Notes: a model not told the origin generated them from the sequence alone. DNA of 38,183 nt from Candidatus Poribacteria bacterium (GCA_965242965.1 CBDETU010000001.1:1-38183); one strand, 5' to 3'; counted from the first letter of the stretch, positions 3,002 to 38,183 are shown. Translations and numbers: made by a program.

Positions 3002-3030
3002 ATTATACCACATTTTAAAGCAAAAGTCAA
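3002..3030 (-). promoter_or_regulatory. sigma70-type promoter with extended -10
   Basis: Minus strand TTGACT-17 bp-TATAAT with TG at the extended -10 position. Confidence 0.85.
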
Positions 3031-3044
3031 ATTAATTCGACCTT

Positions 3045-3145
3045 TGTCTTAAATGCCGTCAGGCTCGGCTGAACGCCGGCATGTTTCCAAAACGCCGAGT
3101 CTAAGCGTATCTCGGTAAAAGGCAGGCGATTTTTTTATTAAGACA
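3045..3145. repeat. TGTCTTAA...TTAAGACA-bounded element, copy 2 (101 bp)
   Basis: Reverse complement aligns along its length with 26844-26942, including the core CGCTTAGACTCGGCGTTT and ATGCCGGCGT. Confidence 0.85.
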
Positions 3146-3162
3146 TGCCGCGGACACGAAAT

Positions 3163-14459: not shown

Positions 14460-15542
14460 CTATTCCTCTATCCAGATATATTTGGGCAAATTCACCGCGG
14501 GGAACACTTCGTCGAGCAGGGCGTAGAGCAACGGATCGCCCTTTATCACCGTCTCTTGGCGCCACCTACCATGCTCGTCGTCTCTGTTAAAATCGTCAAA
14601 CCACTCTCCCGCACCCATCGCCCAGTATTCCCTTTCGTTCTTCATGGCGTGCAAGTTGATGTCGTTATAATATCCTTCGCCTTTGAGTGCTTTCTGATAG
14701 GCAAGCGTATACGCCGTCGTCAAACGCTTCCCAAAATCGGGAAAGAGGTGCGGATTATCGTCAAACGTATAATCTATGGCGTGCGCCATCTCATGCACTA
14801 CTATGCCGCTATCCAGTGATTCTTGGCGCAGCGTTGCATCGAGGTGATAGACAACGCCGCCCGCCGCGAGGTGCCTCGAAACGCCGCCGGTGTTTGAACG
14901 CGTATAAAATCCCGCGAACCGACTGAACGAACTTAGCTCGCCCGGCATGGTTACATCGTCGCCTTCGGCACCCACCAGCACGTAGTAAAATCCGTGTTCG
15001 GGCGACATCGCTTGACGTAGTTCGGGCATCTCCGAGGTCATCATCAAAAGAATCTCGCGCGCCGCATATATGAATTCATCGCGTGCGCCGACAAGGGAGG
15101 TGCGATCGGAGGGGGCAAGGATGGCGATACCACCCGCATCGATGTATTTATCGTAGAACAGCCGGTTCGTCACCTGCAAATCGCAGAACGGCTGGAAGAG
15201 GCCGGCGGCTCGCGGTTCGAGCTGCGTTACCACCAGTTCGCCGGTTTCGGAATCGAGGTGTTGGCCGCTCTTGTGCAGGAGCACGAAATCCTTGATGTGG
15301 TCCATTTTCTGTTCCCAGTTACCCCACAGTGCGTCCTGAATTTCCACCGGCACGGGTGAGATAACCATGTCGCTGCCGGTACCGGCTTTCACCTTGTCGC
15401 TAAGCCAGTAGCCGGCATCGGCATCGGGTGCCGGGTTAGGGACAGGATGGACGATGAGTTCTGTGAGCATGCCGCGTTCGCCGTCAAAACACCCGGCGGT
15501 GAGGACGATGAACGCGAGCAGGTAAAACGTGAATCTTTTCAT
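14460..15542 (-). CDS. lipoprotein zinc metallopeptidase (gluzincin, anthrax lethal factor catalytic-domain-like)
   Basis: Signal peptide with lipobox-like LTAGC; VVHEMAHAID; downstream NEREYWA third-ligand motif; DPLLYALLDEVF terminal helix. Confidence 0.8.
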   Translation of the reverse strand: MKRFTFYLLAFIVLTAGCFDGERGMLTELIVHPVPNPAPDADAGYWLSDKVKAGTGSDMVISPVPVEIQDALWGNWEQKMDHIKDFVLLHKSGQHLDSETGELVVTQLEPRAAGLFQPFCDLQVTNRLFYDKYIDAGGIAILAPSDRTSLVGARDEFIYAAREILLMMTSEMPELRQAMSPEHGFYYVLVGAEGDDVTMPGELSSFSRFAGFYTRSNTGGVSRHLAAGGVVYHLDATLRQESLDSGIVVHEMAHAIDYTFDDNPHLFPDFGKRLTTAYTLAYQKALKGEGYYNDINLHAMKNEREYWAMGAGEWFDDFNRDDEHGRWRQETVIKGDPLLYALLDEVFPAVNLPKYIWIEE

Positions 15543-16444
15543 GAGTGTTCCTCTTGTGCCGACGGTAATGTCGGCAGATAGAATTTTCCATGCATGAGTG
15601 TGCCACTGTCTTGTCCCTGTTTGAGTGTCACGTTGAATCTGTCTTGCATGGAGCGGATGTTGAAGTTAAAAACGTGTGCAAGCAGCATTGCGCACACTTC
15701 ATCATCACCAATGTAAGGGGCGTGCTGTTGCATCCACTGTACGCACGTTGGCAGCTTCGTATGGAACCACTTTGCGGGATAGCACCACATAATACCGAGC
15801 GGCTTCGCGTGCTTTCCTGTGAGTGTCAAATGAGACGCGCCGACGCGTTCCAAAAGCATCTCGATGGAAATGCCACCTTGCTCTGTTGCTTCTAGAAATG
15901 TTCTTAACCAGTTCCATTCAAACCGGTCAACGCGCAGATAGTGCAGTTCTTCTGCGGGTTCCTGATGCAATGTTTCAAAGAGCGAATGATGGTCTTGTCG
16001 GAAAGACATATCGGCATCCCAGACAACAATCCAGTCATATTCGGCGAGGCGCGTATCCCAATACGAACACATCTTCTTGCTGAGGCGAGCCCATCCATTG
16101 CCGAGCCGGTCTGGCAGTGGTGGGGCGTGAAACCACAGCACGTCTTGCTCGACATCGATGTGGTTCGCGTCGAAGACATCGGTGAGGCGTTTATATAACA
16201 CATCCTCGACATAGAATTTGATGGATACGCCCTGTGCCGCCGCATCGGTATATTGCAGGCAGCTCCACCGGGAATAGATGGCGGCGCGGACAAACGCATC
16301 GATGACTTCTTCCGGATAGTGCACATCGACAAAGAGCGGAATCAGCGCGAGGATACGTTCCGATGGGGCAACTGTCGTCGCGCGGACCGGAGGCAGTTGC
16401 TCTATGGGCAACTCCATGAGTGGTTGATAGATTGCATCAAGCAT
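15539..16444 (-). CDS. GT-A fold glycosyltransferase-like protein
   Basis: K......LAEYDWIVVWDADM (DxD) and later GDDEV motif as in GT8/GT34-like enzymes; paralog of 23829-24836. Confidence 0.6.
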   Translation of the reverse strand: MLDAIYQPLMELPIEQLPPVRATTVAPSERILALIPLFVDVHYPEEVIDAFVRAAIYSRWSCLQYTDAAAQGVSIKFYVEDVLYKRLTDVFDANHIDVEQDVLWFHAPPLPDRLGNGWARLSKKMCSYWDTRLAEYDWIVVWDADMSFRQDHHSLFETLHQEPAEELHYLRVDRFEWNWLRTFLEATEQGGISIEMLLERVGASHLTLTGKHAKPLGIMWCYPAKWFHTKLPTCVQWMQQHAPYIGDDEVCAMLLAHVFNFNIRSMQDRFNVTLKQGQDSGTLMHGKFYLPTLPSAQEEHS

Positions 16445-16446
16445 GG

Positions 16447-16830
16447 CTATGAACCAATTGTAACTGTTCCATCATAGGTGGTATTCGCGGCGATAGTTGG
16501 CGCGCGACCATAGATGGAACCTGTAAGTAGTTCGTGTGCGCCGACAGGCTCTGGCGCGCGTCCCTGCACCCGAACGATTGTTTGCTGTGGCCTGTTTGGG
16601 AAGAGCGTCGCCGATAACGATGTCGGCGCGTTGGGATCTCCTCCACTTGCCTTTGTGAGCGTGTAGGAAAATTCTGTCTCCGCGGGTCGGCCAACCGAGT
16701 ATTTGAAAATAACCGACCACTGTTCGCCTGAGTTTGCCTCGACGCGCTCATATTCAGATTCTACCGTCATCGTAGGTAGAACGTCATCCACGCTGACGAA
16801 TAAGGTAAATATATCGCTTGCTGTTGCCAT
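16447..16830 (-). CDS. beta-rich (Ig-like) putative virion protein
   Basis: Thr/Val-rich alternating strands; similar to the C-terminal domain of 17274-17687. Confidence 0.55.
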   Translation of the reverse strand: MATASDIFTLFVSVDDVLPTMTVESEYERVEANSGEQWSVIFKYSVGRPAETEFSYTLTKASGGDPNAPTSLSATLFPNRPQQTIVRVQGRAPEPVGAHELLTGSIYGRAPTIAANTTYDGTVTIGS

Positions 16831-16845
16831 CTTTTATTTCCTTTA

Positions 16846-17271
16846 TTAGGATACGAACTCCATTTCGTGCACGCGTGCGGGTACATCCCCTTCAGGTTCT
16901 TGATAGATACCGCCGGCGATGCCGCGGAGCGATTCGCCGTGGAGCTCCAGCTCAATAATTTGAAAAGCGTTTGCTAGTATCGATATGAGGCTTTCTTCAA
17001 GATTGTGATTGAAAGGAAAGCAGTACCGATGTTCCTCGATGGGCACGGGGGTGTCGAAAACTTCTAATTCCATCACCGTCCGGTCTGTCCATTTCGAGAT
17101 GTCGGGTAATTTTGTCGGCGGGCCTAGCCGATATTCTCCCAACATGATTGCGTAACGCACGCCCTCTTCCGCTTCGTTCTCAACGTAGATAACTTTGTAT
17201 TTTTCGATGAGTTTATCAAGCGTTTTTGAGGGCAACGTTGGATTAAGTAACAGATAAAATGCGGGTTCCAT
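16846..17271 (-). CDS. hypothetical protein
   Basis: Tightly packed between neighbours; ATG directly follows the upstream stop. Confidence 0.6.
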   Translation of the reverse strand: MEPAFYLLLNPTLPSKTLDKLIEKYKVIYVENEAEEGVRYAIMLGEYRLGPPTKLPDISKWTDRTVMELEVFDTPVPIEEHRYCFPFNHNLEESLISILANAFQIIELELHGESLRGIAGGIYQEPEGDVPARVHEMEFVS

Positions 17272-17273
17272 TA

Positions 17274-17687
17274 TCAATCCGGTTGATAAATTGTCAATGC
17301 ACCGTAATAGGTATGATCCATCATCACGTTCGGTGCGGTTAACGTGACGATACCGAATTGTGCTTCGCCGGTGTCGGGTTCAGGTGTATTCGGCGTAATC
17401 TCCCATGTCGGGATGTTCGTCGTCAATGCATTTTGCAATTGCTCGGCATCCGTTTCGTTAATGAACCACTTCAGTTCAAACCGCGTCGATTGCGGTATCC
17501 CGCTGCGATAGATGAACGGCACATCTTTTCGTTCGCCGGCGAGAAGGGTGAGCGGTTCCTGAATATCGATTTGCGGTGGCACCACAGCGGGTTTGGGCGG
17601 TTGCAGAATGAACATGGATGCGATGCGGTTTCGAGATTTTACCAGTAATTTGCGCGTCGCTTCATCTAGCCGATTGACGAGTGCCAT
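17274..17687 (-). CDS. beta-rich (Ig-like) putative virion protein
   Basis: GGAG RBS supports start MALVNRL at 17687; similar to 16447-16830. Confidence 0.6.
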   Translation of the reverse strand: MALVNRLDEATRKLLVKSRNRIASMFILQPPKPAVVPPQIDIQEPLTLLAGERKDVPFIYRSGIPQSTRFELKWFINETDAEQLQNALTTNIPTWEITPNTPEPDTGEAQFGIVTLTAPNVMMDHTYYGALTIYQPD

Positions 17688-17688
17688 G

Positions 17689-17889
17689 TTAGTCTCCGTT
17701 GCCGCGTCGGCTGCCGCCGGATCCGCTGCCCTGCTGATCCGGCGGCGTGTAACTTTCCACGACAATCGTAAAACTGTCGCTGGAGGTTGCCATTAGCCCA
17801 AACCGCAAGACCTGGGTGCCGCGCCGCACACGGGAACGGATGCGTGCCTGTTTTCCAAAAGAGAGTCGGTTCCGCCGCTGGAATTTCAT
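17689..17889 (-). CDS. small basic hypothetical protein
   Basis: 66 aa, fills the gap between two genes with 1-nt spacers on each side. Confidence 0.5.
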   Translation of the reverse strand: MKFQRRNRLSFGKQARIRSRVRRGTQVLRFGLMATSSDSFTIVVESYTPPDQQGSGSGGSRRGNGD

Positions 17890-18781: not shown

Positions 18782-19252
18782 TTAAACCTCCCCTCTATAC
18801 CATGGTTGTGCGGCTTGCTTGAGTTCGTCCTGGTCTGGCCAGGAGCCGGTGAATCGGTAGGCGCGGTCATCGATATAGACCTTGGCTGCGGGTTTGACGT
18901 TCGGGAACGCGATTCGTTCGATGAGTCGTCCCTTTTCGAGGAGCGGCTGCCAGAGTTCGTTGTCGATGGGTGCTACCCATGCGTCTTTGGCAGGGTTTCC
19001 GCGAAAGTGTTCGTCATGGAGTGCGAGCCATGTCTTCATGGCGGCTCGTCCTTCCGGTTGCGCGCTTCTTGCGCTGAAGATGGCGCACCGGTAGGTTTCG
19101 AGGTAGCTGTAGAGCATGGGTATCGCGCCGGGCACGGGTGCATCGGGGATAACATCGATGCCTTTCCAACCGGAGCGGTAGCTATGAAGAACGCCGTCGA
19201 AATCAAAGCAGAGATCGCAGAAGACGGTGGCGGTTTCTTGTTGCTTGCGCAT
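18782..19252 (-). CDS. HAD-superfamily phosphatase
   Basis: Motif I FDFDGVLH, motif II IFSAR, motifs III/IV KPAAKVYIDDRA. Confidence 0.85.
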   Translation of the reverse strand: MRKQQETATVFCDLCFDFDGVLHSYRSGWKGIDVIPDAPVPGAIPMLYSYLETYRCAIFSARSAQPEGRAAMKTWLALHDEHFRGNPAKDAWVAPIDNELWQPLLEKGRLIERIAFPNVKPAAKVYIDDRAYRFTGSWPDQDELKQAAQPWYRGEV

Positions 19253-19264
19253 GTCTCTGTCCTA

Positions 19265-20515
19265 TTATGCTGCGGGTCCCACCCTCATGATGCGGATATT
19301 CTTCCAGCGGTAGGCTCCGACATGCGACCAGGTTACTTGTGCCCGGTCTCCGATGGCGCCGGCGTGGTCTGGGAGAATGTCCCAGCCTCGTGGATAGAGT
19401 GGCATCCGGTCATTTCGTCCCATGCGGATTGCGCTTGGCACGATATTTTCCTCGAGGGTGTTATTGTTCATGATGCCCATGATCTGGCGTTGCATGTTAG
19501 ACGGCACCCAGTAAGCCATCTGGAATCCTGCGCCGCGGCGTTGATTATCGGAGAGTTCCGGTCTGCCGACGTGGAGCATGTAGACTTCGTCGCTGGGCGC
19601 GTGGTCATCGATATAAAAGAAGGCGTTGTAGTACTGGATGCAGGTGATGCCCAAGCGGAGCATGTCCCAGCCGATGAGAATGGAGCCGAGGACATCAGTG
19701 CCGGCATTTACAAATTCGGATGCGAAGGAATCCCAGTTGCGTGGATGCACGGGTGCAATCCAGACCCCGCCGACACCTTGCATGTGTTGCAAGGGTTGGC
19801 TGACAATCGCTCTGCTGAGCGTCGCATTCTCAGCATCCCAGACTTGCGGGACATTGACATAGCGGCGGTATTTGTCTCCACCTGAAATCTTATCCAGCTG
19901 GTTGGGTGGATTTTCATACCAGGGATGCACGCCTTCTTGCCATTCGCCGAGTTCGTCGGGGGCGAGGCCGTTCCAGCTGTTTTCAAAATCCATGAGCTGT
20001 TTCAGGGATTCGGGGCGGCGTGCTTCGGGACCGCGGACAGATTCGGGGAGTGCGCGTCCCCAGAGGTCAGCGGATTTCACCATGCCAATCAGGTCTCCTG
20101 CATCGGAGTAGCGTTCCTGTGCGATAGAAAAGAGCGTATCGCGGTCGCGGGCTGCGACGCTGGACATGCTAAATTCTTGTTCCATCACCTGCTCGATTGT
20201 GAACCCAATATTCTGAACGAGTTCAGTTTCGGCAACGGCGACATCGGCTTGATAGAACGCCCAGTCGGTGTAGTTCTTGACGACGCCGCGTTCGACTCCG
20301 TACATGCGCGCCTGATCGAACCCGCCGTAGTGTCGCCCGGTGCCGAGTTCGGTGCCGGTGACGATGGCGATGCCGTCGCCGGCGGGCCCGGATATCATCC
20401 TCGCCATGCTGTCGAGGATTTGACAGGTAGGCGATTGATTGTAGAGATTGTCGCGGAGGTAGGGTTCCCAGAGGTGTTCCCTGACGGCCGCGGTCATTTC
20501 ATTGTGGATTGACAT
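19265..20515 (-). CDS. major capsid protein (HK97 fold)
   Basis: 416 aa; LRDNLYNQSP..L, G..YGGFD, W..YQADVAV...E...N.G pattern of podophage capsid proteins; the only capsid-sized candidate, followed by decoration and adaptor genes. Confidence 0.75.
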   Translation of the reverse strand: MSIHNEMTAAVREHLWEPYLRDNLYNQSPTCQILDSMARMISGPAGDGIAIVTGTELGTGRHYGGFDQARMYGVERGVVKNYTDWAFYQADVAVAETELVQNIGFTIEQVMEQEFSMSSVAARDRDTLFSIAQERYSDAGDLIGMVKSADLWGRALPESVRGPEARRPESLKQLMDFENSWNGLAPDELGEWQEGVHPWYENPPNQLDKISGGDKYRRYVNVPQVWDAENATLSRAIVSQPLQHMQGVGGVWIAPVHPRNWDSFASEFVNAGTDVLGSILIGWDMLRLGITCIQYYNAFFYIDDHAPSDEVYMLHVGRPELSDNQRRGAGFQMAYWVPSNMQRQIMGIMNNNTLEENIVPSAIRMGRNDRMPLYPRGWDILPDHAGAIGDRAQVTWSHVGAYRWKNIRIMRVGPAA

Positions 20516-20520
20516 GAGTT

Positions 20521-20886
20521 CTAGTTCCTCAACGAATCTTTTCCTTTGATTGTTACGTAGACGGTAGGCCGGGTGCGCCCGGAGGCTGGCGGCGGTGCTG
20601 GATTCGTATATTCAACGACAATCCTATCGCCGCGGCTGATAGGCACTTCCAGGTCTGGCGCGAGATAGATATCGGTTTCGCCACTCGGGTCTTCTTCGAG
20701 CAGGACGGTGGCGTAGTTATCACCGTGTTGGCTCTCAAAGACGACCTGGATTCTTTCAGTCCCTACGTCGGCAGTGTTGGGCGCGGGGTCTAAGCGAATC
20801 ATCGCGGCGTACCAGCTGCCCGCGGTTGGCACACTCCATTCCAAATCGACTTCGCCAGTGAAAGTTCCATACGCTGTTTGAATCAT
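20521..20886 (-). CDS. hypothetical beta-rich protein, probably virion-associated
   Basis: 121 aa, GGAG RBS, directly upstream of the capsid gene. Confidence 0.6.
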   Translation of the reverse strand: MIQTAYGTFTGEVDLEWSVPTAGSWYAAMIRLDPAPNTADVGTERIQVVFESQHGDNYATVLLEEDPSGETDIYLAPDLEVPISRGDRIVVEYTNPAPPPASGRTRPTVYVTIKGKDSLRN

Positions 20887-21018
20887 AAGACTCCATGGGC
20901 GCGTGCCGATGATAAACCGGCGCGCGCCACTTTGGTGCGATTAAAGTTAACCCTGTAGTTGCATTAAACAACAAAACAAGTTTCAATCTCGCCCTCGAGC
21001 GGCTTTTCGTAGATTGTA

Positions 21019-21492
21019 TCAATTTCCCGTTTTTTTGTCAAGATAAAAAAATTCATCTTGCGCGGGGAGTGCCCATGCGCCGAGTAGCAGCCCTTCCTCT
21101 TGATGCAATTGCAAGAGGAGGGTCTCGAGGTCTCCGTCACCGCCCTGCGCGAGCAATTCCCACAGCCTGTCAAAGACGTAGACGTTGGTGAGCATGGCTT
21201 GCGGCGATGGTAAACTGGCGAAGGTTTCAAACGGCATCCCGAACAGCCCGGTCTGCCAGGCAATTTCGTAGGTGCCGGGCAGGCTCTCGTAGAGTGCCGT
21301 GCTCGGGATTTTGTCGAGCGCGATAATGAAGGGTGCCCAGCCGAAACGGCCCTGCACGATATCGGCGGTGGCTTTGACGGCGTGAAGGGCGGTATGCCGG
21401 AACGTTACGTCTTCAGAAATGATGACGAGATTCCCGGCGGGTTCATCTATGAGTGGGCGTTCGATAAAGAAGGCTTGCATGTAGCTTGACAT
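21019..21492 (-). CDS. hypothetical protein (possible degenerate GT25-like)
   Basis: Last gene of the glycosyltransferase run; LVIISED and YVF...WELL weakly recall GT25 motifs; AGGAG RBS. Confidence 0.55.
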   Translation of the reverse strand: MSSYMQAFFIERPLIDEPAGNLVIISEDVTFRHTALHAVKATADIVQGRFGWAPFIIALDKIPSTALYESLPGTYEIAWQTGLFGMPFETFASLPSPQAMLTNVYVFDRLWELLAQGGDGDLETLLLQLHQEEGLLLGAWALPAQDEFFYLDKKTGN

Positions 21493-21494
21493 GA

Positions 21495-22490
21495 TTAGCG
21501 ACCGCTCCTGACGATAGCGTGGAACTGTTCTAACACGGCGGCATAAGAAAAGTGCCGCAGCGCGTAATCTAGCACCTCTTTGTTCCGATAGAGCTGTAGG
21601 GCATCGCCGGTGCAGGTCTCGAGCAGCGCATCGGCGAGTTCCTGAATAGTTTGAAATTGATGCACCGGTCTTTCAGTGTTAATGGGGTGCGTCAGCCCCC
21701 AGAGTGTTGCACCGCCGAGGGCGGCTTCTTGCTGATTTTGACAACAGGTATCATGGAACGCCACGTGCACGTGATGCATGCAGGTGTTCGCGTAAAACGC
21801 GACGGTAGCTTGCGGGACATCGCCGAGGAAGATGTCCGTCACTTCGCGCAGTTCGGCTTCGAGTTTGTGGCGATGGAGTTGCGCGGGCTCGGATGTGCTG
21901 TCCCCCCAGGTCTGCGCTGAACCCATATAGACGGTTTCGATGTCCGTCCCTTTGAGCCGATGATAAAGTTCGCCGAGTGCGTTCGTCTGTTTCTGCCAGC
22001 TGATATGACTGGCGGCGTAGATTCGCTTCTGTTTCGGGACAGGGTAAAACACGTGTTCGGGAACGGCATCGCATAAGAGCTGCGAGTTCGGGATACCGGC
22101 GGCTTGGAACAGGCGGCGGAGATAGGTGCAGTTATGCGTTATCCAGTTCGCCGCGGTGACGAGTTTCTGTCTGCGCTTTGCGGGCCAGAGATAGAGTTCC
22201 TGTTCTGAACCGCAGACGAGGATGTTCCGGAACATTCTGTCTAAGAAGGCATCGAGGCGCGCGTCGAGCTCCTCGGCATTGGCATGCCCGAACCACAAGG
22301 GTTCGACGATGACAAAATCGGTTGCTACCGTCTCGAGGTCTGCGGTGCGGTGCACATGATACGCTTGTGAAAGCATCTGTTCCATGCGGGCGTATTTCAC
22401 GCCGAGTCCCCCGCTCGGATTGCGCGGACCGGGGGGCAGTTCGAGTGCGTATCGTGCAGCTTTGTCGGGAACGAGGAGTGTTAATTCCAT
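21495..22490 (-). CDS. GT-B fold glycosyltransferase (GT4-like)
   Basis: N-terminal SGG; FYP, WQK; FLGDVPQATVAFYANTCMHHVHVAFHDTCCQNQQEAALGG fits the GT4 acidic-x7-E donor-binding motif; FSY..V terminal helix. Confidence 0.75.
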   Translation of the reverse strand: MELTLLVPDKAARYALELPPGPRNPSGGLGVKYARMEQMLSQAYHVHRTADLETVATDFVIVEPLWFGHANAEELDARLDAFLDRMFRNILVCGSEQELYLWPAKRRQKLVTAANWITHNCTYLRRLFQAAGIPNSQLLCDAVPEHVFYPVPKQKRIYAASHISWQKQTNALGELYHRLKGTDIETVYMGSAQTWGDSTSEPAQLHRHKLEAELREVTDIFLGDVPQATVAFYANTCMHHVHVAFHDTCCQNQQEAALGGATLWGLTHPINTERPVHQFQTIQELADALLETCTGDALQLYRNKEVLDYALRHFSYAAVLEQFHAIVRSGR

Positions 22491-22494
22491 CTTT

Positions 22495-23259
22495 TTATGT
22501 CTCGTGCAATCCAATTAAATCGCTGCGGATACCGTCGGTGTAGGCGGACAGCTCGAGGACCCAGCGGTTTCCATAGATAGGGCTTAACCCATCCGAGCGC
22601 GGATGGTTGTCTACGACGGAGTAGAGGTTCGGTGGCCGCCAGTCGGCATAAAGCCCGGCGACGGCGCATTCGGTGTTCAGCAGCGGTTCGTGTGCCATAT
22701 AGGCTAAGAGCAGGTTCGCGCCTTTTGGCGAAAACACTATCGCCCAGTCGGAGGCACCCATTGCGCCGATATAAGCATTATCGAGCGGTGAGACATGCAG
22801 CTGCCGCGGCACATCCCATGTCTTTCCGAGTTCGTATTTGTCATCGTAGAAGAGATCATCGCGGGTATGCCAAGCGAGCAGTAAGATATCGGGATTGACG
22901 TTTGCAACGAGCCGATTCAGTTGTTGACAGGGAACGCGCAGCGCGTAGTCATCGAGCCATGCCGCGGCGTGTTCCTTTCCCTCGCCGATTGTTCGCCACA
23001 TCCGCATGCAACTCCATGAGCAGATGAGATGTCCGTAGCCGATGTTGGGCTGCGGCGTTTTCTGGTGAAACCCGAAGAATTCGGGAAATCCGTCTGCGCT
23101 GGCGGCTTCGCAGATTGCGCCGACATCGGGATAATCGTCTTTGTCGCGCGCGACATGGAGCTGTATCTCATCGGGCTGCACGCCTTGTGCGGCCATCGCA
23201 CCGAGCCAGAGGAACTTTCTATCCGGACGCGAGTTGCGATTCACATAGTGATGCATCAT
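22495..23259 (-). CDS. GT25-like glycosyltransferase
   Basis: YVNRNSRPDR, VARD, GHLICSWSCMRMWRTI, AAAWLDD parallel the GT25 motifs YINL..R.DR, AVDG, GE.GC..SH..W..I, ILEDD. Confidence 0.7.
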   Translation of the reverse strand: MMHHYVNRNSRPDRKFLWLGAMAAQGVQPDEIQLHVARDKDDYPDVGAICEAASADGFPEFFGFHQKTPQPNIGYGHLICSWSCMRMWRTIGEGKEHAAAWLDDYALRVPCQQLNRLVANVNPDILLLAWHTRDDLFYDDKYELGKTWDVPRQLHVSPLDNAYIGAMGASDWAIVFSPKGANLLLAYMAHEPLLNTECAVAGLYADWRPPNLYSVVDNHPRSDGLSPIYGNRWVLELSAYTDGIRSDLIGLHET

Positions 23260-23851
23260 CTGAGAGCTCCCAGCCGAACCGCTTAGTGCATTCAGCTAAC
23301 ACTATCGCCGCGGCTTCCGCAACGGTTGTTTCTGTCGTGTCAATCGCAAGCACATGGGGTGCATGCTTGACTCGCTCGCGAAAATAGTCCATCGCTCGAT
23401 AGGCAGCACCGCCGGGGACATAGTTTTCTTTGACAATCGGATACGAACCGCCCTTGCGGTTGGCAATCCGGTCGGGTATCAACTCGACATTGCAGAGCGT
23501 GATGACATGCAAATCCACCGTGAACTCGAAATCCGCACCGCGGTAACTCGGTTCGAGCGGCAGACAGGGATTATCGAGGATGCACACCTCGCCGGCTTCC
23601 ACCACCGGGGAAATCAAATGAAACCACTGCTGGCGATGTAAGATATGACGGAGAGACTGCCGCGCCACCGCATCGATATGCCACGCATCCCGATACCGAA
23701 ACAGCAGGTCGCGCAAATGATTAATGCCAAACCTATCATCGTGCGGCACCCATTGCGTTGGCAACACAGATGCAAGGTGTTCGGATACGGCGCGACTCAC
23801 CGAGCTCTTTCCGGTGCCAGACAGGCCATCAAACGCGAGGATCGTAGCCAT
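23219..23851 (-). CDS. P-loop kinase, thymidylate/NMP-kinase-like
   Basis: ILAFDGLSGTGKSS Walker A; VCILDN at the DR-motif position; lid RIANRK; IDT near the C-terminus; GGAG RBS before 23851. Confidence 0.8.
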   Translation of the reverse strand: MATILAFDGLSGTGKSSVSRAVSEHLASVLPTQWVPHDDRFGINHLRDLLFRYRDAWHIDAVARQSLRHILHRQQWFHLISPVVEAGEVCILDNPCLPLEPSYRGADFEFTVDLHVITLCNVELIPDRIANRKGGSYPIVKENYVPGGAAYRAMDYFRERVKHAPHVLAIDTTETTVAEAAAIVLAECTKRFGWELSDDASLCESQLASG

Positions 23852-24836
23852 GTGCTTTTCTCCATGTCTGCATAAAGTCCATCGCCGCGGCTGCGCTCGT
23901 TCGTCGCGCGAAGGCAGGCACATGAACCAGGTCTTCAAAATATGTCATCCCTGCATCAGAAATTCTTTCCCGCTTTGCCCATTGTAATTCCCGCGCCAGA
24001 ATTGCAAGAACCACCTCATCATTAGGTGTTATTTGACACAGCGATTTAACTAACGCCGACGATTCTTCCCACAATGGCTGCGAGAGTCCATACAGAAAGC
24101 CATGCACGTGTTCAACACCCTCACGCTGCCAATAGCACAGCTCTTCCTCGGCATCTGTCCCTAGCAGGTTTGCTAATGCCTCAAAAAAACCGGGACGCGC
24201 ATGCCGAAAGACACGGCTCATCGCGGTCTGGCGGGGTGTGCCCATCAACAGTTTGGGGCGGCGCAACAGATATTCCTGTTCCTGCCACTCCGACAACAGC
24301 ATCTTACAGGGCTGCCGGGATGCAGTTTGACGTAACCATGCGGAGGCATCGATATGAAGACGACGCTGAAATTTCGCGAGGCCGGGTGCAGCCCACATAT
24401 CAAATTTGATATTCCACCCATCTCGCATATCTTGATAGGACGGTAACGTCACGACATGCGATTCAGGAAAATCGCAATGCTCAGCAAATTCCCGAAAGCC
24501 CTGTAATCCATTTTCGGAAACACCGATGAAGATGGGAACGCCCTCTTGACGGACATCCCAAAAATGCAACATCTGCCGTGTTAAGAAAAGTGCAGCCTTG
24601 CAATAGCCCTCAAACCTTGCAAGCCCATAGTCCGCACCTTCCGCAAAGGCAATAGAGAGACAGAAGGCTAATTCCTCATGGAATGGATAGTCCATCAGCG
24701 GCGCGAGAGATTCTGTTAACAGCGGCATTTCCAAATGGTAGGGACGTGTCCAGTTCGGATAGCTGTCGCACCACTCGGTGTGCTTCGCGTGGATCCAACG
24801 CCCACCTTGTTCAAGCACGTGAGACTCTATATTCAT
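23829..24836 (-). CDS. GT-A fold glycosyltransferase-like protein
   Basis: Start MNIESH with GAGGAGG RBS; K......GLAKFQRRLHIDAS and NDEVV motifs; paralog of 15539-16444. Confidence 0.55.
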   Translation of the reverse strand: MNIESHVLEQGGRWIHAKHTEWCDSYPNWTRPYHLEMPLLTESLAPLMDYPFHEELAFCLSIAFAEGADYGLARFEGYCKAALFLTRQMLHFWDVRQEGVPIFIGVSENGLQGFREFAEHCDFPESHVVTLPSYQDMRDGWNIKFDMWAAPGLAKFQRRLHIDASAWLRQTASRQPCKMLLSEWQEQEYLLRRPKLLMGTPRQTAMSRVFRHARPGFFEALANLLGTDAEEELCYWQREGVEHVHGFLYGLSQPLWEESSALVKSLCQITPNDEVVLAILARELQWAKRERISDAGMTYFEDLVHVPAFARRTSAAAAMDFMQTWRKAHGYDPRV

Positions 24837-25652: not shown

Positions 25653-26588
25653 TCAGGCGATTCCGAACTGCGCTCGCGACATCGAGGCGACTATTACGGC
25701 TCTCTCGAAATCCCGATGAATCGCGCCCGGCATTCGGTGCCTGTCGCAATCCCGTATCGGTTTCCACCGCCCTCCTTTCTTCTGGTCGATCTCGTGGGTG
25801 GCGATGTTTATCCGATACTGCTCGTTGAAACTGTATCGCCAGTCGCCTTTCGCTCGCATCTCGCGCCGTTGTTCCGCCGGTCTGCGCTTGACGGCGCGCT
25901 TTTCAGGCGGCTTGGGATAGAGCTGGAACACGGAGATCTCGTGCGATTTTGATAACCGCTCTAGCATCCCCGCCTCACGCAACTCGGTGATGAGCTCACA
26001 CACCGTCTGCTTGCCAAACCGTGTTAACTTGGATAACGTCTCCATCGTGCAAGGATTCGTCATCCCTGTCTTCCAATCGGAAAAGCGTTTCAGCACCACC
26101 CATAACAGGCAGGCTTTCCAGCTAATCTCGCCGGCGAACATCCGCTCGAACGGGCCGCCGTTCCCGCGCGGCACCGCAAACTTCAGCGGTAAGCCGTCCT
26201 TATCGCGCGGGATATCTGCTTCATCGCACCGATGGTGTGTCAACTCGTAAATGGTGCCTTTCTGTCCGACGTTGACTATCCGCACGAGGGTGTCTTTCAA
26301 TCGAGTGACAGACTGCCGCAGGTATCGCGTAGAGATACCGAGCAGTTCGGCGAACTTCCGGCGCGATGTCCAATGCGTCCGCCCGTTCTGCCAATTGCTC
26401 CGGTAGTTCAGTGTCAATGCGATAACCGCATCGACGGGCTTCAATTCGTGTTCCATCGTCAAGAGTGTCAACGCGCTACCCATGCCGAACGGCACCTGCA
26501 TCGTTGTCTCTTGATACTCAATATGCGGCTTATATGCCACCGATCCAACGGGGCGACCGCGCCGATTCTTCCGCTTTCGACGGTTCAT
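25653..26588 (-). CDS. putative replication initiator with two tandem winged-HTH domains
   Basis: Internal duplication: LTLNYRSNWQNGRTHWTSRRKFAELLGISTRYLRQSVTRL vs VVLKRFSDWKTGMTNPCTMETLSKLTRFGKQTVCELITELREAGML; AAGGGAG RBS before MNRRK; adjacent iteron-like repeats. Confidence 0.7.
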   Translation of the reverse strand: MNRRKRKNRRGRPVGSVAYKPHIEYQETTMQVPFGMGSALTLLTMEHELKPVDAVIALTLNYRSNWQNGRTHWTSRRKFAELLGISTRYLRQSVTRLKDTLVRIVNVGQKGTIYELTHHRCDEADIPRDKDGLPLKFAVPRGNGGPFERMFAGEISWKACLLWVVLKRFSDWKTGMTNPCTMETLSKLTRFGKQTVCELITELREAGMLERLSKSHEISVFQLYPKPPEKRAVKRRPAEQRREMRAKGDWRYSFNEQYRINIATHEIDQKKGGRWKPIRDCDRHRMPGAIHRDFERAVIVASMSRAQFGIA

Positions 26589-26660
26589 TCTAATCTCTCC
26601 CTTCACCGCGAAACTCAATGACCGCGAGGGGTTTTCAGGGCTTCGCAATGAATTTTTAAT

Positions 26661-26689
26661 TTGACTTTTGGGAGGATTTATGGTATACT
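26661..26689 (+). promoter_or_regulatory. sigma70-type promoter, antisense to the rep leader
   Basis: TTGACT-17 bp-TATACT with extended -10 TG. Confidence 0.8.
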
Positions 26690-26695
26690 ATTCTT

Positions 26696-26780
26696 AGTTT
26701 ATGAAGAGTAGGATTGACTACCATTAATCCTCATTGGGCCTCATTGGGATGCGCGCAGTTAACGCTGCGCGTTTCCTTTT
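26696..26780 (+). ncRNA. putative counter-transcribed antisense RNA (~85 nt)
   Basis: Lies between the plus-strand promoter and a terminator; hairpin 1 AGGATTGA-CTACCA-TTAATCCT (26710-26731); hairpin 2 GCGCGCAG-TTAACG-CTGCGCGT followed by TTCCTTTT. Confidence 0.65.
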
Positions 26781-26792
26781 GCAATTGGTATT

Positions 26793-26821
26793 ATTTTACC
26801 TGATTTGCAATAAAAACGCAA
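26793..26821 (-). promoter_or_regulatory. sigma70-type promoter for rep
   Basis: Minus strand TTGCGT-17 bp-TAAAAT, about 200 nt upstream of the rep start. Confidence 0.65.
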
Positions 26822-26843
26822 GTTAAAAAAGCGCGCCGCGGCA

Positions 26844-26942
26844 TGTCTTAATAAAAATATGTCGTCATTTTCGCAAGATCCGCTTAGACTCGGCGTTTGT
26901 CGATATGCCGGCGTATCGGCTGATGTGACGGAGTTTAAGACA
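26844..26942. repeat. TGTCTTAA...TTAAGACA-bounded element, copy 3 (99 bp)
   Basis: Inverted homolog of 3045-3145; preceded by the shared flank CCGCGGCA. Confidence 0.85.
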
Positions 26943-27088: not shown

Positions 27089-28246
27089 CTAATTGGCTGT
27101 CACGGTCACGAGAAAACTCGTCACCGCAGAGCCGGCTTCGTTTGTCGCGACGAGACGGATGTTGCTATTACCAGCATTCACGGCTGTCAACGCGAGAGTG
27201 CTTGTCTCTGTCAACCGAACCGTCACAACCGAGGTCTGCTCACTCTGCACGGTATATGTCAACCGCTCGCCAGTAAAGACGTTGCTATAATCAACACTCT
27301 GCACGACTCCCCGCGCCAGCGAGACATTTTCCAAATGGGCGGCGACGCTCGGCACTTGCAATACCCGAATCCGAATCCCGCGCCCGACTTCGCGGGCCGT
27401 AAAGGTGCGAGTGGTATTCGCCGCGAGCAGTTCATCGGCACCTGCGGCGATCTTGATGAGGCTCGGATTCTGCGCGGCGGCGACGAAAGCGGTTGACGGG
27501 CCGCCCGTTCCCAGCCCGATACGATGGATATAGGACATCTGCGTTGTCATGAGCGGTGCATAAAAACGCGGGGTTGCACCCTGCCGTGTTGTCAAGCGCA
27601 GATTCTTCCGATGACTGACGAAGGTGAACCCGGGCTTTTCGCCGAGGGAGACCTGGGCGGAATCCCGAACGAAGGCGATATCGGCACCCAGGTCCTGCAT
27701 CCGTTTGGCTTCCCATCGGGACATGACATCGATGATCTTCTTGGCGCGTCTATCACAGGCGATGAGCCAGGGGGAGACCACTTCTGAAACCGCAATCTGA
27801 TACACCAAGAAATCAGTGACACCAAAGTTGCTAATCTGCGAATCGACTTGCGCGGGTAGCTGGGAAGACAGGCTCGCATAGCCGAGTTGGACCTCGCGTT
27901 TCAGCATCGCCATGTATCGCAATTCGCGCTGTGCGGTATCGCCGGTGGGGATGGCGATACCGAGGGCGGCGTGCGTTATTGCGTTTGCGTTGGGGTAGTG
28001 GGACAGGATAGCAATCTTCGCCGAAATCATCGGAAAGTAGTCGTCCACGGATTCGCGGACGTAGACAGGCAGGTAGAGTTGCGCGTTGGAGAGATGAATC
28101 GCGCGCGTGGGCGGATACGTATAATCATACGCCGGGTCCTGCGGTGTCGTAATCCAGTCCCAAATATCGAAATGCGGTGTCTGCGCGCCGATGGGGAGTG
28201 CAATTGCAACCCCTGCCAGCATGAGCAGACAGAAAATCCTTTTCAT
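27089..28246 (-). CDS. secreted protein with C-terminal Ig/cadherin-like domain
   Basis: AGGAGG RBS; signal peptide MKRIFCLLMLAGVAIALPIGA; C-terminal VFTGERLTYTVQS..VVTV..LALTAVNAG..IRLVATNEAGSAVTSFLVTV. Confidence 0.75.
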   Translation of the reverse strand: MKRIFCLLMLAGVAIALPIGAQTPHFDIWDWITTPQDPAYDYTYPPTRAIHLSNAQLYLPVYVRESVDDYFPMISAKIAILSHYPNANAITHAALGIAIPTGDTAQRELRYMAMLKREVQLGYASLSSQLPAQVDSQISNFGVTDFLVYQIAVSEVVSPWLIACDRRAKKIIDVMSRWEAKRMQDLGADIAFVRDSAQVSLGEKPGFTFVSHRKNLRLTTRQGATPRFYAPLMTTQMSYIHRIGLGTGGPSTAFVAAAQNPSLIKIAAGADELLAANTTRTFTAREVGRGIRIRVLQVPSVAAHLENVSLARGVVQSVDYSNVFTGERLTYTVQSEQTSVVTVRLTETSTLALTAVNAGNSNIRLVATNEAGSAVTSFLVTVTAN

Positions 28247-28256
28247 GAGAGTCCTC

Positions 28257-31200
28257 CTAATTTGCAGTTTTAGCATAATAAAAACCACTTACATAAATTC
28301 TAACCGCGCCCGCAGCAGCCGTAGGCTTCACAATTGCGAGCGAGAATCTATTTCCACTATTCGTATGACAGACAGCTGTAATATTCGCGGGATTAGTCTC
28401 AGTGGAAAATATCTGACTAACGTGAACATCGCCATTGGCATACGGCAAATTCCAATAGATGAATTCTGAATTCCAAGCCCCCGACCGATTTGCATTCCCT
28501 ATAAAACTAATGAACACCATATCACCGATGCGGAAAACACGCTGCCAACTAATAGTTACCGTCAATCCGCCACTTATCTTCGTCGGTGTCCAGGGAATAT
28601 GAATGATGTTCGGATCATCCGGCGTATTCCGAATCCCCTTCAGTGTTGACGTTGCGAAATTGAGCACGCCTGTGGCGGAGGCCGAGGTTCGCACGAGGAC
28701 AACCTTTCCGGTATTCTTTGCGATGGGGATGACAACGGAGCCGGCGTAATCGAGTGTTGTTGCGACATCGGTGGGCGGATAGGAAGAGGAGCCGAACTTT
28801 GCATCGGTGAGCAGATAATAGCGATTTGTGACGGTAGCTTCATCGTCGCCGGTGGCGATGAAGTAGAGGCTTGCGGTTCCGTTGCGCGAGCCAACGCCGC
28901 TGCCCTCGAACGTCATGGTGTAGTGCGTGTATCCGAGTTGGCTGCTGGAGCCGAGCGATGCGAAATTGACGGCTTTCTCGGTGACGGTTGCATCGTTTTG
29001 TGGTGCGGTAGACTGGAAATTCGTTAAGGTCAGGCTGACGGATGCGACATGATTGATGGGGCTGCCGCCTACCTCGAGGTCATCGAGTTTTTGTGCGATT
29101 TCCTGCACGGTGTCATCAGTGGTAGTCAAGTTTCCGTCAAAGCCGGATGCGTGGACATAAACATTATCGGCGGCGGTGCCCACCTTGATACGTCCTACTG
29201 CTGTGCCATCATAAAAGCCGGTTGACGAGATGCGCGTGAACAGGACAGCGACGTTCGTCACGCCTGGGGGGATCATCCCCCGCAGGTTGACAGATTTCGG
29301 TGCTTGATCTACGGAGATGGCAGAGCCGCCGGTTAACCGAGTGCCGCTTGCGGAATCACGTCGAATCTGCACGTAGACATCCATCGAGCCTGTCTGCCTG
29401 CCCGTGACAGTCGCCATCAATTGCACTTCGAGCGGTCTTGAGGTTGCTTCGTTCAGCAATGCTGTCGGGAGCGTTATGAGTGTTTCGTGTGCGGCGGTGC
29501 CTTGATTCGTAAACGAGATGGAGACCTCGTGCATTTCCTCGAGGTCCAGTGCATCGCGAAACGCCTTTTCTTGCACATCGGTATCGGCGAGCAATTTACT
29601 GGCCGTGAGGGTATCATCGGGGAGTGATACGTTTCGAGTTGTGCCGGTGCCGGAGACGTTAATGGGTGCAGTGCCTGTAATGTTCGTGAGTCCGCTGACA
29701 GGTGCGCTGGTATCTCCGCCGGCGAGATGCACGAGGTCGCGCACCTGTTGGGCGGCGTATGGGGATAACCTGAAGAGATTCACGGGAACATCGACATGGA
29801 TTGTCTTTCCCGGTGAATGCCGGTACTCAAAGCCACCTTGCGTTCCGATGAGGGTCAGGTTATCGAGTAAGATGCGATTTCCCACACTGCCGGCGTTGGA
29901 TTCGGTCGGCGTTCCAAATGAAATGCCGTAGCCTGCTAAGCTGGTGCCACTTGCAGATCTCAGGATAATCGTCCGTCCTGTCCGCAGAATTCCCGTGGGT
30001 TCGATTTGGTTTGTGTAGGTGAGCGCGGCTGCCTGTGTCAGTGTTGGCGCGCCTGTCGTCACTGCCAAACGCATCTGGGGATGCGATGTAACTACCTCGG
30101 GGTCAAAATGATAACCGCCCTTGATTCTGCCTTCCTCGTTAATGACAACCTGTCCCGGCTGGACCCTATCGGCGAATTGCAACTTTGCATCCGTGATGCC
30201 ATCATCCTTGACAAAGACCTTTCCATCAGCAATGGTGATGCTTTCGCCAGCTGTCAATGGCTGTTCGTTTGAAAGCGTGATGCGATATGTCCATGTGCCG
30301 AGTTCGGCTGCTACGGTGCTGTCCTGATTGACGATGTCAATCTGATACGCCCGCACTGCATGGGGGATGTCCTTCGTGATGGTGACAGCCGTGTAATTCG
30401 CGCCCGTATTTTCTGCGATGCCGGTGTAGGTTTGCGTAAAGTAATTGTGTCCCGGTGGCGCATCGTCATCGACATCCAGCTGGATGTCAATTGCCGCGTC
30501 GCCAGCGTTATCCTTTGCGCGCCATTCGCCTCGAAGGATGAGATGCACGTTTGCATCGTAATCTTCTGCATCGTCTAGCACGGTGCTATCGAGCGTAATC
30601 CAATCGGAGCGAGTTTCGCTGGGTGGGATCTCCGTTGTCGGCGCTGCGCGTTGATTCGCTTTGAATGCCAGTGTTCCGTGTTGCGATGCGGCGACGAACG
30701 GTTTATTGGCGATGAAGTTAGGTGATGCCGAGTTATCCTCGTCCCAGTCAGGTGCGGGTGCTATGGGGACTCCGTCAAGATACGCGTAAGGGAATTTGCG
30801 CTGTGCTGTTGTCACCGTAATGTTTGCGGTAGGTGCTGTGATGCGAGCGAAATAACTATATTGTCCCGGTATGCCCGTGTAAGCGTGCCAGGTGTCGGTG
30901 TCGGTTGTCAAATGCGAGAGATCCTTTTCATAACCGCTGCCGATGGCATAGATGCCGACGAGTTCGGGTAGCTTGGATGTCAGCACCCTGACGAGTAGCG
31001 TCTGTCCGGCAGTAATTGTTTCAGACGTATTCCAACCGCCGGGTGGGAATGAGGTGATTTGATTATAGCGGGTGCCGCTGCCCTGGTAGGTAACCAGGTC
31101 TGGCACAGTTACCCATTGGAACGGCTGGAGGGAGGCGGTGTTTGGGAATCCGGTGAGGTCTTTGGGTTTATTTCGGATGAAGTTGAGCGCGGTGGTATCC

Positions 31201-37655: not shown

Positions 37656-38183
37656 TTATCCGAGAATTCGCAAGACCTGGTCCAATTCGATTTTCCATCG
37701 GGTTTGATGGCCGTTCATGACGGAGCGTTGTGCGGCTGTCAGCGTAGGCGTTCTCCAGCCGAGGAATTCGCGGATAGCGGGAAACCGGAAGGTCGGGATG
37801 TGTCGTCGGGTTAGCCATTGTCTGGCGGTATCATGATTTTTGAGGTTGCACTGTCGTCCTAATGCGCCGTAGGACTGTCCGTTTTGGCTCAGGGCATATT
37901 TCACCAAGGTCTGCTGCCATGTTTTTGTTTCGTCGCTGATGGTCTGCAGGTGTGGCTTCCAGCAGTCGGGCATGATAGGCGTAGGGACTTCGTAAATATC
38001 CAGGTCCAGGAGAAAGCAGTGGAGTGCCCATGCTTCCAGTGTTATCGGCTTAGTCGATTTCGATGAGAGCATTTTCCAGAAATATGCCAAAGATACTTTT
38101 TTTGTGAGGCAGGCTTGCATCGCGGCCGCGGTCCAGCCTGCGTCCCATCTTTTGATGCTGAGCCAGAGATAAAAGGCTTTCAG
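37656..38183 (-). CDS. 3' part of the HNH-multi-HTH gene (open at the right edge)
   Basis: Frame is open from 38183 (LKAFYLWLSIKRWDAGWTAAAM...); XRE-like YALSQNGQSYGALGRQCNLKNHDTARQWLTRRHIP; in frame with 1-969 if the ends are joined. Confidence 0.8.
   Translation of the reverse strand: MKAFYLWLSIKRWDAGWTAAAMQACLTKKVSLAYFWKMLSSKSTKPITLEAWALHCFLLDLDIYEVPTPIMPDCWKPHLQTISDETKTWQQTLVKYALSQNGQSYGALGRQCNLKNHDTARQWLTRRHIPTFRFPAIREFLGWRTPTLTAAQRSVMNGHQTRWKIELDQVLRILG

Follow-up and report, generated by a model that had tools for sequence, protein, structure and literature searches.

We analyzed a contig of 38,183 nucleotides from a Candidatus Poribacteria assembly (GCA_965242965.1, CBDETU010000001.1:1-38183), the whole of which is called the window here. 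It is the complete circular genome of a podovirus-like phage of Ca. Poribacteria, and it carries a cassette of glycosyltransferase (GT) and kinase genes at positions 21,019 to 24,836. With moderate confidence, we propose that these soluble enzymes build a cytoplasmic glycan on the phage's own virion proteins. The cassette and the genes that follow it are listed below, with protein lengths in amino acids (aa) and the evidence for each call.

23829..24836, minus strand: GT-A-like glycosyltransferase, 335 aa (Atlas, homologs in arrays, alignment)
23219..23851, minus strand: P-loop kinase with a deoxynucleoside/thymidylate kinase fold, 210 aa (phrog_761, structure-profile matches)
22495..23259, minus strand: GT25-family glycosyltransferase, 254 aa (family profile)
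21495..22490, minus strand: GT4-like GT-B glycosyltransferase, 331 aa (PF00534 in family members)
21019..21492, minus strand: 157-aa partner open reading frame (ORF) of the GT-B gene (conserved slot, AlphaFold model)
21013..21041, minus strand: sigma-70-like site, 11/12, with extended -10 (consensus match only)
20521..20886, minus strand: probable virion accessory gene, 121 aa (homologs among the head-tail genes of relatives)
19265..20515, minus strand: major capsid protein, 416 aa (Atlas, synteny in relatives)
18782..19252, minus strand: HAD-family phosphatase, 156 aa (phrog_23773, phrog_1238)
16447..17765, minus strand: three small genes, 163, 143, and 127 aa (candidate acceptors, homologs beside GT genes)
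15539..16444, minus strand: fourth GT, GT-A-like, 301 aa, in the head operon (alignment, orthologs)

All five cassette ORFs and the fourth GT are recognized as genes by a codon model that was trained on the host chromosome. The GT-A and kinase ORFs overlap by 23 bp and the kinase and GT25 ORFs by 41 bp, while gaps of 4 bp and 2 bp separate GT25 from GT-B and GT-B from the 157-aa ORF. An initial annotation, made from the DNA alone, had described overlapping or abutting GT-A-like, P-loop kinase, GT25-like, and GT4-like genes plus a further ORF, with a fourth GT in the head operon, and each of these genes was recovered on the minus strand. Its statement that the block lies directly upstream of the capsid gene needs correction, because the 121-aa gene and a promoter-like site intervene. 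This site, read from 21041 to 21013, stands before the 121-aa and capsid genes, and a 132-bp gap precedes the 121-aa gene on the cassette side. The promoter scan yielded 9 sites in total compared to 7.6 +/- 2.7 in shuffles, so there is no excess. Upstream of the cassette are a 178-aa orphan gene and rep. The cassette follows rep and the promoter-like site precedes the capsid unit, so the cassette may be expressed either with rep or with the late genes.

The enzymes also appear to be soluble. In agreement with the initial annotation, no module gene encodes a membrane helix (no 19-residue hydrophobic window of at least 1.7), and the same threshold finds none in 68 members of three GT clusters. 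Likewise, the reported absence of GtrA/GtrB, DNA polymerase, and base hydroxymethylase was reproduced, given that Pfam and PHROGs scans of 43 window proteins found no such family and no thymidylate-synthase-like gene. No terminator-flanked moron layout was seen.

Taken singly, the window GTs have no match in Pfam, PHROGs, or NCBIfam. Families were therefore built from relatives, and the GT labels rest on family profiles and Atlas rather than on single-sequence matches. Single GT sequences likewise had no match in PDB, where the GT-A profile also gave no meaningful match, and comparing the GT25 profile with those of GT-A and the 157-aa partner gave negative results. The 254-aa protein is a predicted GT25 enzyme, assigned at the family level. 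Its family profile (A3, 23 sequences) matches human COLGALT1 (E = 2e-7) and Mimivirus R655 (E = 4e-5), which are the closest solved GT25 structures, and PF01755 is found in 2 of the 23 members. The GT25 match spans the catalytic domain, and the N-terminal NL..R.DR and acidic D-D motifs are present.

The 331-aa protein is predicted to be a GT4-like GT-B enzyme and the conserved anchor of the arrays described below, which makes it a candidate priming enzyme. Its family includes 123 clusters at 50% identity (E up to 1e-30), with PF00534 detected in 14 of 33 members, and D247...E255 fits D/E-x7-E, which we take to be the GT4 motif. A 130-176-aa ORF begins within 60 bp after 16 of 21 full-length GT-B genes, and by this gene position the 157-aa ORF is its predicted conserved partner. 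The sequence link to other partner ORFs is weak (E = 0.56). An AlphaFold model (predicted local distance difference test, pLDDT, of 80) depicts an alpha/beta domain that weakly resembles a truncated GT-A fold. Nearly all of the top 50 structural matches have GT-A folds, with a best Z of 5.4 that is too low for family assignment, and Foldseek returned nothing at E up to 0.001.

The 335-aa protein and the fourth GT probably belong to the same GT-A-like superfamily (GT6/GT8-like), although this assignment is weaker than those of the GT25 and GT-B enzymes. The two align as one group (alignment A4). Atlas scores of 0.94-0.95 link the 335-aa protein to viral clusters carrying GT6 (PF03414, 98% of members) and GT8 (20%), and homologs occur in glycan arrays (E = 5e-13). 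In this protein, D-A-S replaces the full DxD motif. The fourth GT carries W-D-A-D and has orthologs in three other elements (E = 1e-46 to 3e-51). None of 18 GT-A homologs scanned has a Pfam GT match, and a BLAST comparison of the two window proteins was not significant.

The 210-aa protein is predicted to be a P-loop kinase with a deoxynucleoside kinase/thymidylate kinase (dNK/TMK) fold. It matches phrog_761 (E = 6e-6), and a profile of nine array kinases matches dGK, dNK, TMK, and UMP-CMP kinase structures (E = 1e-10 to 1e-8). Residues G9, G14, K15, R128, and R132, representing the P-loop and lid arginines, are invariant. The D-R motif, presumably a thymidylate-kinase signature, is not kept (D-N in the window kinase, D-x-F in the consensus). 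The window kinase is only 15-25% identical to the array kinases and has no direct match in the 175 other genomes of the phylum, and annotated phages offered no match to the window kinase, capsid, or GT-B. When an array kinase was compared with annotated phages, generic dNK/TMK genes alone were matched, at 23-25% identity.

The window cassette is the short version of large sugar-building arrays in this lineage. In relatives, the arrays range from about 15 kb (genomes G011 and G034) to about 80 kb (G051, with insertions and duplications) and often lie between the lysis genes and terminase. For example, in G034 and G051 the array is co-oriented and located between lysozyme and terminase. Of the 848 ORFs called in the first 40 stretches, 276 were scanned with Pfam, namely cluster representatives plus those ORFs of at least 125 aa in element-bearing stretches that had no assignment; later stretches were labeled by our own profiles only. 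The scanned ORFs include NTP-transferases, epimerases, GHMP kinases, an SIS isomerase, NeuB, and cytidylyltransferases, as well as Stf0 sulfotransferases, O-, C-, and FkbM methyltransferases, acetyltransferases, and de-N-acetylases. One array cluster gave weak GT29 matches. No flippase, O-antigen polymerase, Gtr protein, or lipid-carrier transferase was found among these 276 ORFs and, within profile sensitivity, no thymidylate-synthase-like, TET-like, or DNA polymerase gene.

Kinases recur beside GT25, GT-B, or sulfotransferase genes in about ten arrays. Moreover, GT-B is naturally fused to sulfotransferase (P0074, P0126) and to GT25 (P0098), which ties these enzymes into one pathway. P0027 was considered as a GT-B/partner fusion and rejected because its tail is of low complexity. 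In G034 (L042:16587-18169) and G134 (L149), a collagen-repeat fiber gene and a lectin-like gene stand directly before the glycan array; this fiber drew our attention because the closest structures of the GT25 family include collagen galactosyltransferases.

Across 176 genomes of the phylum, the GT-B profile identifies 45 places in 22 genomes, the GT25 profile is matched in 21 genomes, and the window-type capsid is present in 17. The GT-B places group into 28 loci, of which 16 are inside podovirus virion modules, including six (G018, G082, G084, G103, G124, and G131) that were judged from coordinates beside the capsid match. Among the remaining 12, four are on contigs of <17 kb that are too short to judge, leaving 24 judgeable loci, and four full-length and four truncated loci have no virion genes. 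GT-B shares a locus with the capsid gene in 13 of the 17 capsid-bearing genomes. Contig ends restrict what can be seen in G150 and G134, the latter having an array start on another contig. Arrays are also present in podophages that were unmatched by the capsid query (G051:C3, G136:C68, and G089:C3). Searches revealed no related loci in viral contigs, in JGI metagenomes, or, with the GT-B alignment, in genome contigs.

Substitution rates in genus g8 suggest that the locus is maintained under purifying selection. The ratio of nonsynonymous to synonymous rates (dN/dS) is 0.02-0.07 for the capsid gene (8 genomes) and 0.07-0.12 for GT-B (6 genomes). GT-B and its partner diverge in step with the capsid gene (dS of 0.48, 0.35, and 0.43, respectively), and mid-array genes turn over faster than these three. 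Because dS for the locus matches that of the flanking host genes, it looks vertically inherited.

Chromosomal loci with virion and glycan genes occur at G011:C1 3.07-3.11 Mb, G020:C1 4.71-4.76 Mb, G034:C1 3.48-3.52 Mb, and G051:C1 4.23-4.33 Mb. The capsid gene of such loci is found in 8 of 10 genomes of genus g8 and 6 of 20 of genus g9, and the loci have flanks in common, signs of purifying selection, and host-like dS. No integrase or replication gene was recognized in the g8/g9 loci, which are possible domesticated elements resembling gene transfer agents. Many Poribacteria chromosomes also carry several large-terminase genes (L078-L115), up to five per chromosome and usually after a 170-210-aa ORF, with none of the virion genes of the phage lineage within 10 kb. 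These are possibly satellites or packaging modules. A 289-kb contig (G089:C2, 100-240 kb) includes the virion module of this lineage, eight GT-B copies, a rep homolog, and a type III-A CRISPR-Cas operon. On the 80-kb contig G089:C3 (L154, L155), the first 10 kb repeats the gene order near the contig end, which suggests a terminal or assembly repeat.

The genes downstream of the cassette include plausible acceptors. The 416-aa gene is identified as the major capsid protein because of its Atlas score of 0.98 to phage major capsid clusters, and its homologs in relatives come after the portal and scaffold genes. Single-sequence AlphaFold gave no usable capsid model (pLDDT of 30), and the capsid profile had no convincing PDB match. 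Three g9 capsids have Ser or Thr among their last three residues, and those of g8 and G089 have no Ser there. The HAD phosphatase matches phrog_23773 (E = 2.5e-19) and phrog_1238 (E = 7e-8), and a homolog matches HAD_SAK_2. The 163-, 143-, and 127-aa proteins have no signal peptides, and the last is 22% Ser+Thr. The fiber is 19% Ser+Thr. Homologs of these three genes adjoin the fourth GT or GT-B in G122, G089:C3, G051:C3, G035, and G086. The head operon also holds a lipoprotein gene with an HEXXH motif (14460-15542) that has five homologs on the host chromosome (28-61% identity), one of which sits between truncated copies of the phage's neighboring genes.

Virion glycosylation could proceed as follows. 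Host nucleotide sugars would feed the synthesis of a short glycan, with GT-B, aided by its 157-aa partner, attaching the initial sugar to a virion protein and with GT25 and the two GT-A enzymes then lengthening the chain. The kinase would phosphorylate it, occupying the place of the sulfo- and methyltransferases of relatives, or alternatively would recycle the released nucleoside monophosphate. We infer this order, and the acceptor would be a capsid, decoration, or fiber protein. Candidates are the capsid, the fiber, and the small Ser/Thr-rich proteins whose genes accompany the fourth GT. If a glycan pathway lacks both a lipid carrier and an exporter, its acceptor must be cytoplasmic or the host must provide the export, and a virion protein is the simplest acceptor because the arrays are found repeatedly among virion and lysis genes in phages with differing capsids. 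The constant GT-B/partner pair at the end of variable arrays would behave like a priming step with a fixed acceptor. The presumed benefit is that free virions are masked from sponge phagocytes or that their binding to mesohyl is adjusted. The suggestion in the initial annotation of a role tied to an animal-associated host is consistent with excerpts of one study, in which the phylum is mainly sponge dwelling and sponge cells phagocytose virions (PMC8245591).

Several observations weigh against this proposal. Sequence analysis identified no acceptor, and the window capsid ends in VGPAA, with no C-terminal serine. Given its position after rep and ahead of a separate promoter-like site, the cassette may be expressed in a carrier state. 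Full-length GT-B loci without virion genes persist in G015, G035, G051:C1 (4.52 Mb), and G089:C1, and G157 retains a GT25 array without virion genes. Conversely, the capsid module is retained in two g8 genomes (G032 and G115) in which neither GT-B nor GT25 was found. Genes for exported proteins of host type (LRR/GHL15/dockerin, DUF481 barrel, lipoprotein) are interspersed in the arrays. In addition, the genomes are kin, so these counts are not independent observations, and two GT-B proteins had no tblastn match in 50,697 annotated phage records.

Glycosylation of virion proteins, as the initial annotation had proposed, is nonetheless the best reading because of the linkage to virion modules, the tailoring enzymes, and the lack of base-modifying and lipid-carrier genes. 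Two of the arguments originally given for it have lost force. Proximity to the capsid unit counts for less now that the cassette is seen to follow rep, with a promoter-like site between. The absence of membrane anchors stands as an observation but is also compatible with a lipooligosaccharide acceptor, since soluble GT25, GT8, and GT4 enzymes act on such acceptors in bacteria and the host has LpxC (E = 3e-78) and WaaA (N-domain, E = 1e-36). The strongest rival, which we nonetheless consider doubtful, is that the enzymes extend or cap the lipid A-Kdo core, or another surface glycan made in the cytoplasm, in cells that carry the episome. Export would rely on host transporters, and the outcome would be altered phage receptors or sponge recognition. 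GT25, GT8, and GT4 enzymes are the classic soluble enzymes of lipooligosaccharide synthesis, and heptose and nonulosonate belong to surface-glycan pathways. The orphan loci and the G157 array, the placement of the cassette downstream of rep, and the lipoprotein and outer-membrane genes carried by these elements fit this explanation as well. However, 16 of the 24 judgeable loci have their arrays inside virion and lysis operons, and three of the four full-length orphan loci retain phage-cassette neighbors, as would fit prophage decay. The position of the fourth GT inside the head operon, next to small proteins without signal peptides, and the lack of a moron layout also argue against surface conversion.

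We regard hypermodification of phage DNA as quite improbable. In this scenario, GT-B and the kinase would glycosylate a base and the other GTs would extend the sugar, as in the arabinosylation clusters of RB69 and DLP3, which also pair GT-B with a thymidylate-kinase-like gene, a HAD phosphatase, an NTP-transferase, and an isomerase (PMC13326640). The window indeed holds GT-B, a dNK/TMK-fold kinase, and a HAD gene, and DNA methylase genes occur in or near the arrays of G048 (PF01555) and G051 (PF00145). Yet, at profile sensitivity and with several ORFs unassigned, neither the 43 window proteins nor the 276 ORFs of relatives include a thymidylate-synthase-like, TET/JBP-like, or DNA polymerase gene. 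Moreover, the palindromes depleted in the host are also depleted in the element, a pattern that exposure of the DNA to restriction would produce but that might also stem from long residence in the host. To our knowledge, chains that are sulfated, methylated, or nonulosonate bearing have never been described on DNA. It seems similarly far-fetched that the genes are unlinked cargo, with the kinase serving in ordinary nucleotide salvage and the GTs, which would cluster at a recombination hot spot, having small molecules or host proteins as substrates. The fold of the kinase, its low identity to array kinases and lack of direct matches in the phylum, and the wide variation in array content would agree with such a view. 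Against it are the overlapping reading frames, the recurrence of kinases in the arrays, and the loss of the D-R motif. Furthermore, a kinase and a GT-A homolog are found on contigs of the same maximal size (30,370 bp), as are GT-B and GT-A (39,236, 21,843, and 4,002 bp).

The window is the entire second contig of a 5.70-Mb assembly, and its ends (base 38183 to base 1) are joined by single contigs from two sequencing runs (4,877 and 8,938 bp), so the sequence is circular or circularly permuted. A single HNH-domain ORF reads in frame over the contig ends (1029-1 continuing 38183-37656). The minus strand carries all 40 called genes, among them a P22-like portal, large terminase, SU10-type adaptor, internal-virion-like protein, lysozyme, holin-like gene, and rep-like helix-turn-helix gene (Pfam, PHROGs), and the same searches found no integrase among window proteins. 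Inverted homologous intergenic blocks at 3004-3153 and 26656-26898 each have an extended -10 promoter-like site, with a repetitive extragenic palindromic (REP)-like palindrome nearby. Variation within and between sequencing runs, in the form of substitutions and short replaced segments, affects a 399-aa gene and the C-terminal region of the 1,643-aa fiber (27089-29129), whereas most of the element does not vary in this way.

The host of the phage is the bacterium that was assembled, or one closely related to it, as judged from shared repeats, a decayed gene block, matching palindrome depletion, and a CRISPR-like repeat match. Specifically, the chromosome and the element have a REP-like repeat in common, and the chromosome holds a decayed remnant of the block comprising the fourth GT, lipoprotein, and adaptor. 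Depletion is similar in the element and host for GTAC (0.20 vs 0.16) and GATC (0.25 vs 0.32), and the five most depleted 6-mers of the host occur 4 times in the element compared to 41.7 expected. At 7674-7711 there is a spacer-like match whose flanking repeat is almost the same as that of a chromosomal CRISPR array, although no spacer of the host chromosome matches the element. Short contigs with CRISPR-repeat-like flanks match the window at 7261-7297, 7674-7711, 22930-22964 (inside the GT25 gene), and 25666-25702. A terminase alignment built from phylum mates found 39 loci, 37 of which are from Ca. Poribacteria.

If our proposal is correct, virion glycosylation extends to podoviruses of a Gram-negative animal symbiont and involves far richer chemistry. 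In the literature examined, glycosylation of tailed-phage particles has been shown only for mycobacteriophages, and full glycan clusters only for giant viruses. The persistence of phages in sponges, whose cells eat free virions, is a standing question that would become testable. GT-B and its partner may represent a new soluble protein glycosyltransferase. The six-gene set of the window is the smallest version found and therefore the easiest to reconstitute. If surface conversion proved true instead, prophages would diversify the coat of a major sponge symbiont. A bolder extension of virion glycosylation, which we hold to be speculative and rather unlikely, is that these podoviruses run giant-virus-style glycan factories, started by a new protein-glycosylation complex of GT-B and its partner, that yield lineage-variable coats that are sulfated, phosphorylated, or nonulosonate capped. 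The g8/g9 loci would then be fixed in the chromosome under purifying selection, in the manner of gene transfer agents, as makers of sugar-cloaked particles in sponges.

A literature search returned no report on glycan genes in Poribacteria phages, and the excerpted text of a preprint on phage families with many carbohydrate-active enzymes includes nothing on this lineage (bioRxiv 10.64898/2026.08.04.742344). Several known systems nevertheless offer comparisons.

O-antigen conversion by GtrABC depends on membrane proteins, and lipooligosaccharide is built by soluble GTs such as LgtB and Lic2A (GT25), LgtC (GT8), and WaaG (GT4). The cassette uses the same GT families as the latter, in a host that makes lipid A-Kdo. 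Unlike GtrABC, there is no GtrA, GtrB, or membrane transferase (no window ORF has more than one hydrophobic segment, as a GtrABC-type multi-pass transferase would), and the genes are embedded in virion operons. Among DNA modification systems, TET/JBP-linked glycosylation uses a 2-oxoglutarate-Fe(II) TET/JBP dioxygenase and a C5 methylase. Neither is found in the window by Pfam or PHROGs, and relatives have methylases but no TET-like match. The 5-hydroxycytosine glycosylation clusters of RB69, DLP3, and RL38J1 share with the window GT-B beside a thymidylate-kinase-like gene and a HAD phosphatase, and with its relatives an NTP-transferase and an isomerase (PMC13326640). They differ in that our scans of the window and relatives found no thymidylate-synthase-like hydroxylase and no phage DNA polymerase, GT25, GT-A, and sulfotransferase genes are present, and restriction-type palindromes are depleted.

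The arrays appear to be organized like the glycan clusters of the Megavirinae, without being members of that group. Mimivirus, Moumouvirus, and Tupanvirus have gene clusters for chemically characterized fibril glycans, and in these viruses, as in the window's relatives, GTs are clustered with sugar-nucleotide enzymes and methyl-, acetyl-, and sulfotransferases, the Megavirinae set varying by clade (PMC10117803). The GT25 profile also matches R655 of Mimivirus. In contrast, the arrays belong to small tailed phages or prophage-like loci. The window is a 38-kb element whose portal is P22-like and which also encodes a terminase and an SU10 adaptor, and its cassette comprises GTs and a kinase but no sugar-nucleotide genes.

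Mycobacteriophages provide the closest functional parallel. Freeman et al. reportedly described O-glycosylation of the virions of Che8, Corndog, and Myrna in 2023. Serine is the C-terminal acceptor in the mycobacteriophage capsid protein, and the window capsid has no C-terminal serine. Other papers describe capsid and tail-tube glycosylation (PMC12363180, PMC12619734), with a C-terminal site on the capsid in the second of these papers. The precedent invoked by the initial annotation, of GTs among structural genes, is partly upheld. Such genes lie between portal and protease in cluster O (PMC4351075), where the GTs and O-methyltransferase of Corndog resemble the head-operon position in the window, but near the genome end in glycosylating F1 phages (PMC11256854). 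As to homology with the Che8 gp110 and Corndog gp38 enzymes, two GT-B proteins were searched by tblastn and had no match in the annotated phage records. With no such match and no C-terminal serine, membership of the cassette in the mycobacteriophage system is tentative. Unlike the mycobacteriophages, the window represents a podovirus-like phage of a Gram-negative host and has a kinase and a conserved GT-B partner, and its relatives have genes of their own for sugar nucleotides, sulfation, and nonulosonate. What is particular to the Poribacteria lineage is its host and scale, the unit of GT-B and partner, a kinase that recurs, and versions fixed in the chromosome. Both systems, however, encode several soluble GTs of phage origin, and the cassette likely works in the way that mycobacteriophages glycosylate their virions.

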